From: Candidatus Sumerlaeota bacterium
GTDB taxonomy: Bacteria > Bacillota > SLNR01
Reading direction: 5' to 3'
DNA: 64,000 nucleotides
NCBI GenBank assembly: GCA_040766585.1
Contig: JAXGQE010000010.1
Span: 63,117-127,116, forward strand
Notes under the pieces: generated by a model
The model's input: only the letters and a program-made list of their open reading frames with translations
What the model was told of the DNA's origin: nothing
Databases searched by the model: none
Translations under genes and position numbers: made by a program
Shown: in pieces, positions 29,307 through 43,724 of the stretch
Position numbering within the stretch: the stretch's first letter is position 1
Layout of the letters: every line of letters starts with the position of its first letter

Positions 29307-29435
29307 ATGGCACAGTGGGTATGTGAAAAGTGCGGACACAGCCAAGAAGGGCGCTGCAAACCGAAAAAGTGTCCGGCGTGCGGTGAAAGCGGCACTTTTG
29401 TTAAAGATGCAGCTGCCGAAGAGAAGAAGAAATAG
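29307..29435 (+). CDS. rubredoxin-like zinc-ribbon mini-protein (RCKP-type)
   Basis: 42-aa ORF below the track cutoff: MAQWVCEKCGHSQEGRCKPKKCPACGESG... with CxxC-x12-CxxC; RBS AAAGGGGGA 9 nt upstream; ends 16 nt before the aldo/keto reductase start. Confidence 0.55.
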   Translation: MAQWVCEKCGHSQEGRCKPKKCPACGESGTFVKDAAAEEKKK

Positions 29436-29451
29436 CGGGGGAGGGATCCAT

Positions 29452-30411
29452 ATGGAAATGAGAAAGCTGGGCAACAGCGGTCTGGAAGTGACGGAGCTTT
29501 GCTTTGGCGTACTGCCTATGGGGCCTCTGCAGGCGGATATTTCCCGAGAGGAAGCCGTGTCCCTCCTGGTAGAAGGGATGAAAAAAGGGATAACTTTTTT
29601 TGATACAGCCGAAAGCTACCGGACCCAGGAATACCTGGGTGAGGCGATTCGAAAGGCTGGTCTCAGCGAAGAATCCCTGGTGGTAGCCACAAAATCAGCT
29701 GCCGTCAGCTACGAAGAGATGGAAATCAGCATTCAAAAATCTTTGAAAGAACTGGGACTGCCCTACATCCATATTTATCATCTGCATGCTGCCCGGGTTA
29801 CCGCTGCTGTGTTTGAAGAACGAGCAGGGGCTCTGCAGTGTCTGAAAGACTACCAGGCAAAAGGGTTGATTAAGGCAGTGGGAATTTCAACTCATGCTGT
29901 GGATGTGGTTGAAAAAGCAGCTACCCATCCTGACATTGATGTAATCTTTCCATTGATCAACCGGACCGGAATGGGCATCCTGGCTGGAACCAAAGAAGAT
30001 ATGATCGCCGCCATCAGCAAAGCGGCCGATGCCGGGAAAGGGATATATGCCATGAAAGCGCTGTCTGGAGGCCATCTGATTGATGATCTAAAAGGCGCTT
30101 TCGGCTATGTGCGGGACTTAAAGGGGGTCGAGGCTGTAGCGGTGGGGATGGTCCATCCCAATGAACTGGAAGTTAACTTCAAAATTTTTGACGATCCCTC
30201 CTATGAACCGGGACCGGATGCAGTATCTCACCGCAAGAAAAAGAGACTGATGGTCATGGGTTTTTGCATCGGCTGTGGCCGCTGTGTGGAAGCCTGCCCC
30301 AATCACGCGCTGCACCTGGAGAACAAAAAAGCGATGGTGGATCATGAAAAATGCATACTTTGCGGCTACTGCAGCGGAGTATGTCCCATGTTTGCCCTGC
30401 GTCTGATTTAA
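29452..30411 (+). CDS. aldo/keto reductase fused to a C-terminal 2x[4Fe-4S] ferredoxin domain
   Basis: ORF 29323-30411 reads through the preceding mini-gene in another frame; start reset to ATG 29452 behind GGGAGGG. C-terminus CIGCGRCVEACP ... CILCGYCSGVCP. Confidence 0.85.
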   Translation: MEMRKLGNSGLEVTELCFGVLPMGPLQADISREEAVSLLVEGMKKGITFFDTAESYRTQEYLGEAIRKAGLSEESLVVATKSAAVSYEEMEISIQKSLKELGLPYIHIYHLHAARVTAAVFEERAGALQCLKDYQAKGLIKAVGISTHAVDVVEKAATHPDIDVIFPLINRTGMGILAGTKEDMIAAISKAADAGKGIYAMKALSGGHLIDDLKGAFGYVRDLKGVEAVAVGMVHPNELEVNFKIFDDPSYEPGPDAVSHRKKKRLMVMGFCIGCGRCVEACPNHALHLENKKAMVDHEKCILCGYCSGVCPMFALRLI

Positions 30412-30491
30412 TCTGGAATTTCGCGGCGGGATCTTTGCCGTATGAATCTGTGATCGGATACGACCCATTACAAATATAGGAGGAGATGTGG

Positions 30492-30989
30492 ATGAAAACC
30501 AAAGAGAATCTGATGGCTGCTTTTGGCGGAGAGTCCCAGGCCAACCGCAAATACCTGGCTTTTTCAAAAAAAGCAGAAAAAGAAGGCTACAAGAATGTGT
30601 CCAGGATCTTTGCGGCCATTGCGGAAGCTGAAACAATCCATGCTTTGAAACATTTCGAAATCGCTGGCAAAGTCGGAAGTACACTGGAGAATCTGAAAGC
30701 TGCCTCCGAGGGTGAAGAGTATGAATTCACGGAAATGTATCCAGAGTTTATCGAAACGGCCAAAGCCGAAGACGACAAAAAGGCGCTCCAAACATTGGAA
30801 TATGCCAATGCAGCGGAGAAAGTTCACGGAGGTATATTTGCCGACCTGGAAAAACAGGTGGCTGGTGGAAGCGACGCAGAAGCAGGAGAAGTCCATCTTT
30901 GCCCGGTATGCGGATGGGTAGGTTTTGAACCGATTCCGGAACGGTGCCCCATATGCAATACAGTCAAGTCAGTATTTCGGATCTTCTAA
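30492..30989 (+). CDS. rubrerythrin
   Basis: Start at ATG 30492 behind AGGAGGAG (7-nt spacing); di-iron ExxH motifs (AEAETIHALKH, AEKVHGG) and C-terminal rubredoxin motif CPVCG...CPICN. Confidence 0.88.
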   Translation: MKTKENLMAAFGGESQANRKYLAFSKKAEKEGYKNVSRIFAAIAEAETIHALKHFEIAGKVGSTLENLKAASEGEEYEFTEMYPEFIETAKAEDDKKALQTLEYANAAEKVHGGIFADLEKQVAGGSDAEAGEVHLCPVCGWVGFEPIPERCPICNTVKSVFRIF

Positions 30990-31110
30990 GACACATAAAT
31001 TGAATACACGGCATGGTTTCTTGAGCCAATGGCAGGATTCAGATCAATTTTGCTGAGCCGGCTGGTGAAACCAAAGGACATCTTTGCCGCGGTTTTCATC
31101 GGACGCAATA

Positions 31111-31139
31111 TTGACATCCGAATGAGAATTCGATACAAT
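31111..31139 (+). promoter_or_regulatory. sigma-A-type promoter driving the riboswitch-ATPase transcript
   Basis: TTGACA (31111-31116), 17-nt spacer, TACAAT (31134-31139). Confidence 0.7.
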
Positions 31140-31147
31140 AATTTTGT

Positions 31148-31290
31148 CGAAATGAAGGGGAGTAGCTCACAGTAGTCACTGTCCGTCAGGGCGTCAATCC
31201 GGCGAAAGCCCGCTCTGCCGGCCAAGAAGTTTTGGCGAGCAAGACCTTTGTTCCGGTTCCAAAGAACCGGAATAGGGGTCTTTTTTTTGA
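31148..31290 (+). promoter_or_regulatory. candidate yybP-ykoY (Mn2+-sensing) riboswitch with terminator-type expression platform
   Basis: Contains GGGGAGTAGC (31157-31166), GGGCGTCAA, CCGGCGAAAGCCCG and GCAAGACC, which I recognise as yybP-ykoY core segments; ends in a hairpin plus T8 (31252-31288), 39 nt before the ATPase start. Confidence 0.65.
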
Positions 31291-31326
31291 GCAAAGACCC
31301 TGCACTACTATCCGGGAGGTCTTACC

Positions 31327-34089
31327 ATGGAAAGTGAAAAATGCTGGTCGTTAGAGGAATCGGAAGCAGTATGTCATCGTCTGCAGACCAATCTGGAATC
31401 AGGATTAACTTCGGAAGCCGTGCAGCGGAAGATCAAAGAATACGGAATGAATGAGCTGGAGGAAAGGGAGAAAATATCACCCTGGGCCATTTTTGCTGCC
31501 CAGTTCAAGGATTTTATGGTACTGGTCCTTCTGGGAGCGGCGCTGTTGTCCGGCGTACTGGGGGAACTGGTGGACACTTTTGCGATTGCTGCCATCATTC
31601 TGATCAATGCAGTTTTGGGATTCGTTCAGGAATATCGGGCGGAGCAGTCCATGGCGGCTTTGAGGGAAATGTCAGCCCCCACAGCGCAGGTGGTGAGAGA
31701 AGGCCGGATCCAGGTGATTCCTGCCCGCCAGCTGGTACCCGGGGATCTGGTGGTCCTGGAATCCGGCGATAAAGTACCGGCAGATGGACGACTGGTGGAG
31801 GTCAGTAATTTGCGCATTGATGAGTCCATGCTGACGGGGGAATCCAAACCATCCAAAAAAATCGCTGTTCCTCTGGAACAGGAGGCGGCTGGCCCTGCCG
31901 ATAAGAAGAACATGTCGTTTATGGGAACCATCGTCACGGATGGGCGGGGGCACATGATTGTTACAGAAACCGGCATGAAAACAGAAATGGGCCGTATAGC
32001 CCATATGATCCAGTCCGTACAAGAGGAACAAACACCCCTGCAGAAGAAACTGGATCATCTGGGGAAGCTTCTGGTGGTGGGGTGTCTGCTGATTTGTGTA
32101 GTTGTAGCAGTTACAGGGATTCTTCGCGGTGAAGATCCACTGATGATGCTAATGGTGGGAATCAGTCTTGCCGTGGCGGCGATTCCGGAAGGACTGCCGG
32201 CCATTGTAACTGTATCTTTGGCCATTGGTGTTCAGAAAATGATAAAGCGCCACGCTTTGATCCGCAGCCTGCCGGCCGTTGAGACACTGGGATGCACCAA
32301 TTTCATCTGTTCGGATAAAACCGGTACACTGACAGAAAACAAGATGACCCTTAGAAAGATATATACCAACGGCCAGATCTTTGATATTACCGGAGTCGGT
32401 TACAGTCCAGTGGGTGAGTTCCGCCATCAGGAGCGACCGGTTACTGAAGAGGAATTTGAACAGCTGCGTCGGCTGCTGCAAATCGGAACGCTGGCATCCA
32501 ATGCCAACCTGATCGAAGCAGGAACGCATCTGGATGAAGCCACCACCGATACCGGAAATGGAGACTGGACCATCAGCGGAGACCCCACCGAAGGGGCCAT
32601 TGTTGTGGCAGCTGCCAAAGCCGGTGTCTGGAAGGAGCAGTTGAAAACCGAATGCACCCGGGTACTGGAACTTCCCTTTGATTCAGACCGCAAGCGAATG
32701 TCCACGGTCTGCCACACTCCCGCGGACAATGGCATTGTCAGCGTCAAAGGGGCTGCAGAATCGCTTTTGGATTTGTGCGACGGAATTTGGGAAGCGGGAT
32801 ATATTAAGAAAATGACACCGGAAGATCGGGTCCGGGTGACTCGCATGAACGAGGAAATGGCATCCATGGCCCTGCGAGTCCTGGGGATAGCTTACAAAGA
32901 TGTGGGCAGCCCTGGGGAGGTGACTCCGGAAACGGCCGAGTCCGGCCTGATATTTGCCGGGCTGGTGGGCATGATTGATCCGCCCCGGGAAGAAGCCCGG
33001 GCAGCCATTGCCCGTTGTGACCGGGCAGGCATCAAGACAGTCATGATCACCGGAGATCATCGCCTGACGGCTGAGGCTATCGGCAAAGAGCTGGAAATAC
33101 TCAAAGACGGAGACTCCATTTTAACTGGGGAAGACTTGAACCGAATGTCCGTGGAAGAGCTGTCTCACAATGCAGAGAAAGTGTCCGTTTACGCTCGGGT
33201 GGCACCGCATCACAAACTGAATATTGTCAAAGCACTGGAAGAAAGAGGCCATATCGTGGCCATGACCGGAGACGGGGTCAACGATGCTCCGGCCGTAAAA
33301 GAAGCGGGTATCGGGGTGGCCATGGGAATCACCGGGACCGATGTGACCAAGGAAGCTTCATCGATGATTTTGATGGATGACAACTTTGCTACCATCGTAG
33401 CTGCGGTGGAAGAAGGAAGAGCCATCTATGACAATATTCGAAAATTTATCCGGTATCTGCTGTCCTGCAATGTGGGTGAAGTATTAACGATGTTTATTGC
33501 ATCCCTCATGGGGATGCCACTGCCGCTGCTGCCCATCCAGATTCTTTGGGTGAATCTGGCTACTGACGGTCTGCCGGCCATTGCTCTGGGGCTGGATCCT
33601 TCAGATTCCGGCATTATGGAACGGGCTCCTCGAGGATCCAACGAAACGGTCTTTTCCAGAGGATTGAGTCGGATCATCATTTTGAGGGGTGTGGTCATCA
33701 GTGTCATCACTTTGCTGGCTTTTGCCCTATCCCTGGAGCAGTTTCCCGGGAATCTGACGCTGGCCCGGACAACGGCATTTTCCGTTCTGGTTATATCTCA
33801 GCTGATGCATGTGTTTGAGTGCCGGTCAGAAACAAAGAACATCTGGGAAATCGGATTTTTTACGAATCTGTACCTGGTGGGGGCCGTATGCATATCCCTG
33901 TTGATGCTGCTGCTGGTTATTTATGTGCCGGCTATGCAGCCGGTTTTCAGAACCATACCGCTGGATACAGGACATTGGCTGTTTGCTTTGGGGCTGGGAG
34001 CGGCCGGATCATTGTTGATGAGGGTTCTGCTGTGGGCCGCCGGATACATTTTAGGACCGGTATCTCTGCCCGATGTAAAGAAGGTGTAA
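31327..34089 (+). CDS. P2-type (SERCA/PMCA-like) cation-transporting ATPase; probably a Mn2+/Ca2+ efflux pump
   Basis: 920 aa; DKTGTLT phosphorylation motif, [10 protein letters not shown], 10-TM architecture; RBS GGGAGG 6 nt upstream; riboswitch-like leader. Confidence 0.92.
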
Positions 34090-34092
34090 GGA

Positions 34093-34121
34093 TTGCCAGG
34101 GCATTTAATATTGGTTATAAT
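34093..34121 (+). promoter_or_regulatory. sigma-A-type promoter of csoR
   Basis: TTGCCA (34093-34098), 17-nt spacer, TATAAT (34116-34121); about 150-nt leader to csoR. Confidence 0.6.
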
Positions 34122-34275
34122 AATGAAAAGGATACTGTAAATGGTCCATATTTCCCCTTCCGGATGATGGGGAACAGAAATGGGTATTCTTCAGCCGGAG
34201 TCTGACAAGAGCAGTCCGAAAAAATGGAAGTCAGCCTTCATTCCGTGGCAATGATGCATGAAGGGGGCGTCGAAC

Positions 34276-34563
34276 ATGAAAAAGCCGGATCAGCCGCAGA
34301 ACAGTTTCGATAAAAAGAAACTGCAGGCACGATTGCGCAGGATTGAAGGACAAATACGCGGTCTGCAGAAGATGATTGACGAGGATCGGTATTGTGTGGA
34401 TGTACTGGTGCAGATTGCCGCTGCCCGGGCAGCATTAAACCGGGTTGGCATGGCTGTGCTGGAAAAACACACTCGAGGGTGTGTGGTAAATGCCATTGCT
34501 CACGATCGGGGTGACGAAGCGGTGGATGAGCTGATGGATGTATTGATGCGGTTTATTCAATAA
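34276..34563 (+). CDS. csoR: CsoR/RcnR-family metal-sensing transcriptional repressor (copper-sensing CsoR type)
   Basis: ORF 34258-34563, start at ATG 34276; RLRRIEGQIRGLQKMIDEDRYCVDVLVQIAAARAAL with the family's Cys/His positions. Confidence 0.85.
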   Translation: MKKPDQPQNSFDKKKLQARLRRIEGQIRGLQKMIDEDRYCVDVLVQIAAARAALNRVGMAVLEKHTRGCVVNAIAHDRGDEAVDELMDVLMRFIQ

Positions 34564-43420: not shown

Positions 43421-43724
43421 TAACGACATTATAGATTGCATCCGAACCAGTTGGATGTGGTGGACGGATACAGAAGGAGGTGGAAGATGGGTAAGGGAAG
43501 AGATCCGATCGGGAACACGGCATGGAGTCTTCTCGGTTGTCAAAGCGCCAGAACTTGACTTCGGTCAAGTTGACGAGGGAGAGGTTAATCGAATCTTCGG
43601 CGGGTGCCTCTCGGTGCAGTCACCATCGTAGAAATGCTACAAATCCCGGAAGTGATTTCGGTGACAAAAGGCATTGCAGTGACAATTGTAGTTTGATATA
43701 TGAATATTGGGGGAGGAATCGTTT

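Follow-up and report, generated by a model that had tools for sequence, protein, structure and literature searches.

Our results indicate that the leader of a P-type ATPase gene, located in a 64-kb stretch of DNA (here termed the window), belongs to the yybP-ykoY (Mn2+) riboswitch class, an assignment that we hold with high confidence. It is also likely, though held a little less firmly, that this RNA controls an efflux pump for Mn2+ or Mn2+/Ca2+ through Mn2+-induced antitermination; which ligand is bound, which way the switch works in vivo and what the pump transports are points that we infer by homology. Both proposals had been made in an earlier note on this DNA. The class proposal agrees with the score of a covariance model built here (R1, 75.5 bits), with covariation, with the nucleotides of the metal pocket, with the expression platform and with the gene context. 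The proposal of a Mn2+-controlled pump is supported by the overlap of terminator and P1.1, by the context and by the precedent of the mgtA gene of Streptococcus pneumoniae.

The leader of about 180 nt lies between a promoter and the pump gene (Table 1). The promoter had been read in the earlier note as TTGACA-17-TACAAT, and this reading is confirmed, with 11 of 12 consensus positions matched at 31111-31139; both hexamers and their spacing are also kept in L002, an orthologous locus. All four core segments picked out in that note are found where it put them or no more than a few bases away. A three-part pattern of these cores occurs once in the 64-kb window and in none of 100 dinucleotide-preserving shuffles with three mismatches allowed.

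Table 1. Coordinates of the leader, its elements and the neighbouring genes in the window.
Feature	Positions	Strand	Details
Upstream gene, aldo-keto-reductase-like, C-terminal 4Fe-4S ferredoxin domain	29323-30411	+	
Upstream gene, rubrerythrin-like	30486-30989	+	
Sigma-70-type promoter	31111-31139	+	-35 TTGACA 31111-31116; 17-nt spacer; -10 TACAAT 31134-31139
yybP-ykoY (Mn2+) aptamer, four-way junction	31148-31255	+	R1 model positions 1-121 of 121; constrained fold
P1.1 5' strand	31153-31158	+	Partner 31245-31250; extendable to 31151 with 31252
Core GGGGAGTAGC	31157-31166		
L1 5' side GGAGUA	31159-31164	+	R1 alignment
P1.2 5' strand GCUC	31165-31168	+	Partner GAGC at 31237-31240
P2 hairpin	31169-31182	+	5 bp, loop AGUC; constrained fold
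P3 arm	31184-31220	+	P3.1 = 31184-31193 with 31211-31220, one U-C mismatch
Core GGGCGTCAA	31189-31197		
L3 bulge UCAAUCC	31194-31200	+	7 nt; within P3 arm
Core CCGGCGAAAGCCCG	31199-31212		
P3.2 GGC/GCC	31201-31210	+	GAAA loop; within P3 arm
P4 hairpin	31221-31236	+	6 bp; constrained fold
Core GCAAGACC	31239-31246		
L1 3' side AAGA	31241-31244	+	Common to terminator 5' arm
Intrinsic terminator	31241-31288	+	19-bp stem 31241-31282; U8 run 31281-31288
Shine-Dalgarno GGGAGG	31314-31319	+	7 nt 5' of ATG; read directly from sequence
Type IIA P-type ATPase gene (pump)	31327-34089	+	920 aa; phospho-Asp D330; site II E288/N743/D747
CsoR/RcnR/FrmR-family metal-sensing repressor gene	34258-34563	+	Directly 3' of pump; matched best by RicR at 84 bits, under the cutoff

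The two genes upstream of the leader, one encoding an aldo-keto-reductase-like protein with a ferredoxin domain and the other a rubrerythrin-like protein (29323-30989), suggest that the host is an anaerobe; a different gene precedes the leader in L002. The CsoR-like gene that follows the pump has a near-consensus promoter-like site of its own at 34093-34121, and shows no similarity to the open reading frame (ORF) that follows the pump in L002. Three further candidate features of the leader were rejected. A seven-codon upstream ORF at 31152 has no ATG at the equivalent position in L002. A minus-strand ORF of 102 aa across the leader (30986-31294) has no counterpart of 80 aa or more in the L002 leader, and is regarded as noncoding because the substitutions between the two leaders are also stem-compensating. 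A second hairpin that might mask the ribosome-binding site, formed by AAGACC (31294-31299) with GGUCUU (31318-31323, overlapping the Shine-Dalgarno sequence), folds no better than shuffled sequence (z = -0.02), is absent from L002 and is taken as a chance pairing.

Members of the yybP-ykoY class are built on a four-helix junction, in which P1 goes with P2 and P3 with P4, and in which P2 and P4 are dispensable. At the level of secondary structure this junction is present in the window and is backed by covariation; stacking and docking of the helices are matters of three-dimensional structure. Pairing in the window agrees with the R1 model at 33 of 36 pairs, across P1.1, P1.2, P2, P3.1, P3.2 and P4, the unformed pairs being two loop-closing positions and a U-C mismatch in P3.1. 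All of the L1 and L3 core nucleotides are kept: the conserved L1 of the class, whose G-G-A belongs to GGGGAGUAG with AAGA opposite, is found as GGAGUA (31159-31164) and AAGA (31241-31244), and the conserved L3 bulge is found as UCAAUCC (31194-31200). Constrained folds show that nearly all elements among the matches listed, the window included, share the plan P1.1-L1-P1.2-(optional P2)-P3.1-7-nt L3-P3.2-P4, and P2 is described as optional in the class (PMC6649816). In the Lactococcus lactis structure, the metal pocket consists of L1 G8-G9-A10 and L3 C40-A41, with N7 of A41 contacting Mn2+ (PMC6649816). By the numbering of that study, G31159, G31160 and A31161 are the counterparts of G8-G9-A10, and C31195 and A31196 those of C40-A41. 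Among 100 relatives from the matches listed, UCAAU and the final C of L3 are invariant or nearly so. At position 6 of L3, 79 per 100 of these relatives have A, 17 have U and 4 have C, as does the window; the P3.1 pair adjoining L3 is U-G in 68, C-G in 28 and G-C in 3 per 100 and is G-C in the window. These two variants beside L3 are rare but tolerated, and are minor peculiarities.

The R1 model was built with Infernal from a seed of 46 metagenomic relatives with a four-way junction, leaving out the window, L002 and the Escherichia coli elements. A plain MAFFT alignment with RNAalifold resolved just P1, P2 and part of P3 and was replaced by individual constrained folds projected onto the alignment, giving 36 consensus pairs; only the L1 and L3 core nucleotides were forced unpaired in folding each element. 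R1 matches the window at 31148-31255 over its full length with 75.5 bits (E 2.3e-19), which is the sole match in 64 kb and a mid-range score for the family among the matches listed. It scores 66.8 bits on L002 and, across unrelated ATPase loci totalling 486 kb, finds no match at E<=1. The seeds were picked by a pattern that the window also matches and, hence, its 75.5-bit score is in part circular. No such circularity affects the two E. coli leaders, neither of which matches the selection pattern: R1 recovers mntP over its full length, the 3' GCGAGACC strand included (38.2 bits, E 8e-9), and alx likewise over its full length (35.4 bits, E 3.7e-9). Both mntP and alx are experimentally validated members of the class (PMC10197570), so that one model of sequence and structure together unites the window with validated members. 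Covariation in the stems, which were left unconstrained, is likewise not circular. It was assessed on the R1 alignment with 100 nonredundant elements from the matches listed, and although an alignment fitted to the model favours its structure, the margins are large: standard pairs fill 89.6% of cells, as against 64.2% in column shuffles and at most 47% with partners slid, and the covariation score is 0.534, as against 0.147 in shuffles (none of 500 reached 0.534) and at most 0.094 in slides. The pairing is not of the covariation-inconsistent kind that the earlier note had named as counting against its proposal, with 30 of the 36 pairs changing on both sides. All six helices covary among these 100 elements, with both-side changes at 4 of 6 pairs in P1.1, 9 of 10 in P3.1 and 4 of 4 in P3.2, and with covariation at all six model pairs of P2 and all six of P4.

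The Rfam model for the class, RF00080, gave no match anywhere in the 64-kb window at its gathering score (45 bits), nor any match at E<=10 on a 351-base segment or on the bare 111-base aptamer; formally, this is the outcome that the earlier note had named as counting against its proposal. The model tested was that of Rfam 15 as served, and it was present in the library. No other Rfam family matches the leader at E<=10. In the Rfam scan, the sole family at its gathering score in the window was a glmS ribozyme (RF00234) at 43533-43687 on the plus strand (102.8 bits, E 6e-23), a separate observation. The positive controls fail with RF00080 too. Neither the validated E. coli mntP element, at 41.6 bits, nor L184, an L. 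lactis-like element with 38.7 bits, reaches the gathering score; these low-scoring controls sit at L001 5462-5558 and L184 8884-8978. At E<=1 the model misses 18 of 20 core-bearing metagenomic loci, L002 among them, and finds L184 and one other (L146, 48.0 bits). In the printed RF00080 consensus the 3' P1/L1 strand is missing and P4 is lengthened by about 70 inserted nt. The miss says little about the window, since the model is an operational measure that lacks sensitivity here, failing on mntP and on 18 of 20 relatives, and the miss is best read as a false negative. Pipelines that rely on RF00080 may therefore under-annotate Mn2+ riboswitches, and an absent match does not amount to an absent element.

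A terminator hairpin had been placed in the earlier note at 31252-31288 with a T8 run 39 nt before the ATPase start. The hairpin, the T8 run and the ATG at 31327 are all there; the stem, however, is really one of 19 bp at 31241-31282, and the spacing from the T run to the ATG counts to 38 nt. Folded alone, the terminator has a free energy of -30.4 kcal/mol and a z of -6.6 relative to shuffles, and its stem shows compensated changes between the window and L002. Its 5' arm (31241-31259) takes in both the 3' part of L1 and the P1.1 3' strand, and because the closed aptamer uses the same nucleotides the two structures are mutually exclusive. Structure prediction, as the earlier note had recommended, thus finds both the four-way junction and a terminator that excludes it. 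The minimum-free-energy fold of the full leader contains the terminator and lacks P1, whereas the aptamer by itself forms P1; the terminator state is predicted at -63.2 kcal/mol and the aptamer-only state at -39.1 kcal/mol. As the terminator state is favoured, the default would be OFF, and readthrough would need a ligand-stabilised P1 formed during transcription. An arm able to re-pair with the conserved AAGACC strand (RGGTYTTTT) lies 3' of 52 of 100 relatives, and of 16 of the 20 that are linked to ATPase genes, among the matches listed. An expression platform competing with P1, which in the class is either a terminator or a helix that sequesters the ribosome-binding site, is therefore present in the window. 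The overlap is as expected for an ON switch working by metal-induced antitermination, with the direction of switching in vivo predicted by homology.

The pump has the catalytic motifs of P-type ATPases (DKTGT with D330, TGES at 170, TGDH at 575 and GDGVND at 648) and the Cation_ATPase_N/E1-E2 architecture, and it scores 342.5 bits against TIGR01494 (cutoff 62.3). Its scores against the PMR1-type model (767.5 bits) and the SERCA-type model (700.0 bits) both fall just under the NCBIfam equivalog cutoffs (798.3 and 703.4, respectively), and we therefore claim only type IIA for this protein. The nearest solved relatives are LMCA1 (669 bits, matched over residues 23-902), human SPCA1 (617 bits) and SERCA1a (557 bits). 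Site II (E288, N743 and D747) is conserved, with the same Glu/Asn/Asp as in the Ca2+ pump LMCA1 and the Ca2+/Mn2+ pumps SPCA1/PMR1. At site I, E718 and T746 are SERCA-like and Q825 occupies the position of SERCA Glu908. In LMCA1 the equivalents of E718 and Q825 are Ala691 and Arg795, the residues that disable its site I, so that unlike LMCA1 the window pump is not blocked there in this manner; the two pumps may therefore differ in how many ions each cycle moves. LMCA1 is not known to have a riboswitch. The site I Glu equivalent to E771 was considered as a marker of riboswitch linkage and proved uninformative, being present in 16 of 19 linked and 77 of 79 unlinked pumps. By homology the substrate is probably Mn2+ and/or Ca2+, selectivity being a property that cannot be read from sequence.

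Searched against genome contigs, the pump yielded 80 loci. Nearest among them, with 70% protein identity, is L002, a locus in a Candidatus Sumerlaeota metagenome-assembled genome (MAG). L002 carries a promoter, aptamer cores, terminator and pump as in the window. Where the P3.1 pairs of the window are C-G, A-U and G-C, those of L002 are A-U, A-U and A-U; the retention of the aptamer with compensated substitutions at 70% protein identity points to purifying selection on its structure. The other 79 loci (L003-L081) come from Clostridia and relatives, with 48-56% identity. In the leaders of 79 of the 80 closest pump homologues no riboswitch was found, the motif being absent and R1 giving no match at E<=1, and covariation among orthologues is therefore confined to L002. 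A scan of metagenome contigs with the pattern GGGGAGTAGC-N(10-40)-CGTCAAT-N(25-55)-AGCAAGACC gave at least 120 loci. The first downstream ORFs of 95 relatives among the matches listed encode TerC proteins (41), type II P-type ATPases with a Cation_ATPase_N domain (20), M48 peptidases (9) and members of the Na/Ca-exchanger family (3). The literature on the class counts TerC proteins and P-type ATPases among its targets (PMC6649816, PMC10197570), and the type IIA ATPase of the window agrees with the usual location of these RNAs 5' of a gene of metal-exporter type. The window pump shares 40-48% identity with riboswitch-linked pumps among the matches listed and 49-56% with riboswitch-less clostridial pumps, a comparison that carries little weight as the two samples were chosen differently. 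These observations suggest that riboswitch control may be patchy in this pump family, by gain or loss. A full-text literature search for GGGGAGUAGC returned unrelated primer matches only.

The M48 (HtpX-like) genes found 3' of 9 of the 95 elements (e.g., L090, L099, L100, L116, L149, L165 and L172) form an observation in their own right. The RNAs linked to them are a coherent subgroup among the matches listed, with a GC-rich P2 of the form CCGGCC-GGAGACAU-GGCCGG. The yybP-ykoY class is not known to be associated with Peptidase_M48.

The closest functional precedent is the mgtA riboswitch of S. pneumoniae, where Mn2+ lets transcription read through into the gene of a PII-type Mn2+/Ca2+ ATPase and so switches it on (Martin et al. 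2019, PMC6649816). Both have a yybP-ykoY aptamer in the 5' untranslated region of a type II P-type ATPase gene, the same pocket nucleotides (L1 G-G-A and L3 C-A) and a platform in which a terminator lies just 5' of the ribosome-binding site, an ON switch in S. pneumoniae and a predicted one in the window. The pneumococcal element has a three-way junction without P2 (PMC6649816), whereas the window has P2 and a four-way junction. The hosts are also unrelated: the nearest relative of the window locus is that of the Candidatus Sumerlaeota MAG. A second case of a riboswitch with a P-type ATPase is YoaB of L. lactis (PMC6649816, PMC10197570). The yoaB (yaoB) element, the crystallised prototype, resembles the window in its four-way junction, 7-nt L3 (UCAAUNC), terminator and P-type ATPase on the 3' side, and the cores GGGGAGUAGC and AGCAAGACC are common to both; a near-identical metagenomic copy (L184/L147) is in the R1 family. 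The window differs in having C rather than U at position 6 of L3 and G-C rather than U-G at the pair adjoining L3, and the two pumps are about 41% identical to each other. The E. coli mntP and alx elements, recovered by R1, are of the same aptamer class and both control Mn2+ exporters. They act mainly on translation, whereas the window has a terminator, and in place of an ATPase they control MntP and proteins of the TerC family; alx responds to pH as well (PMC10197570). Their L3 and 3' cores, GUCAACAUAC and GCGAGACC, diverge from those of the window.

Whether the cores could be a chance resemblance in some unrelated structured leader is the most basic alternative, and its one piece of support is that RF00080 finds nothing in the bare aptamer, not even at E<=10. 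That model fails its own positive controls, however, and no other Rfam family matches. The core pattern is absent from 100 shuffles, R1 unites the element with the validated mntP and alx of E. coli, and six covarying helices agree with the gene context, so that we find chance resemblance scarcely credible. A constitutive attenuator or decayed aptamer, in which the terminator would only damp expression and nothing would be sensed, might be seen in the three unformed model pairs (of 36) and in the rare features beside L3 among the matches listed (the G-C pair closing P3.1 in 3 per 100 and the position-6 C in 4 per 100). Yet loop-closing positions account for two of the three unformed pairs, all of the invariant pocket nucleotides are kept, the R1 score falls in the middle of the family range and L002 retains the aptamer with compensated substitutions; decay is very improbable.

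A different question is raised by the signal. The RNA could belong to the same class and yet respond physiologically to Ca2+, or to Ca2+ with Mn2+, so that in effect a Ca2+ pump would be governed by a Ca2+ switch. The affinity of the S. pneumoniae mgtA aptamer for Ca2+ is about 50-fold that for Mn2+ (PMC6649816), the closest solved relative of the pump is the Listeria Ca2+-ATPase LMCA1, site II is intact and site I is not Arg-blocked, the closest homologues resemble ordinary riboswitch-less Ca2+-ATPases, and three RNA relatives among the matches listed precede genes of the Na/Ca-exchanger family. In S. pneumoniae, however, readthrough with Ca2+ was far below that with Mn2+ in vitro and did not occur in vivo (PMC6649816), and a response to Mn2+ is common to every validated member of the class (PMC6649816, PMC10197570). 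The adenine equivalent to A41, which gives preference for Mn2+, is also present in the window, and we regard a Ca2+ signal as improbable. Among the observations that stand against a Mn2+-induced Mn2+ efflux pump are the absence of the riboswitch from 79 of the 80 closest pump homologues, to which the pump is slightly closer than to riboswitch-linked pumps, and the nature of the nearest solved relative, a Ca2+ pump. In this lineage a Mn2+-class aptamer may have been recruited independently onto a member of an otherwise riboswitch-less clade of bacterial Ca2+-ATPases and, given also the rare G-C pair and the position-6 C of L3, its selectivity may have shifted, for example, towards Ca2+. This seems to us decidedly improbable; if true, such a shift would make the leader a natural Ca2+-responsive riboswitch.

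For the Mn2+-induced antitermination that we prefer, the following course of events would be predicted. Transcription from the promoter at 31111-31139 would yield a leader containing the Mn2+ aptamer (31148-31255). When metal is scarce, the 19-bp terminator and its U8 run would form by drawing on AAGA from L1 and on the P1.1 3' strand, and transcription would stop before the pump gene. As cytoplasmic Mn2+ rises, an ion would be bound between L1 (G31159, G31160 and A31161) and L3 (C31195 and A31196), docking the two helical stacks, locking P1.1 and withholding the 5' arm of the terminator. RNA polymerase would then read through into the pump gene (31327-34089), and the pump would export Mn2+ and probably Ca2+ too.

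Other bacteria are already known to pair this riboswitch with type II ATPases, and the leader described here is an ordinary further case. It extends a pairing known in Streptococcus and Lactococcus to a distant, probably uncultured lineage. For the organism, the annotation gained is a routine one, in which the pump acquires a probable role in the efflux of Mn2+ (or Mn2+/Ca2+) and its leader a known mechanism of control.
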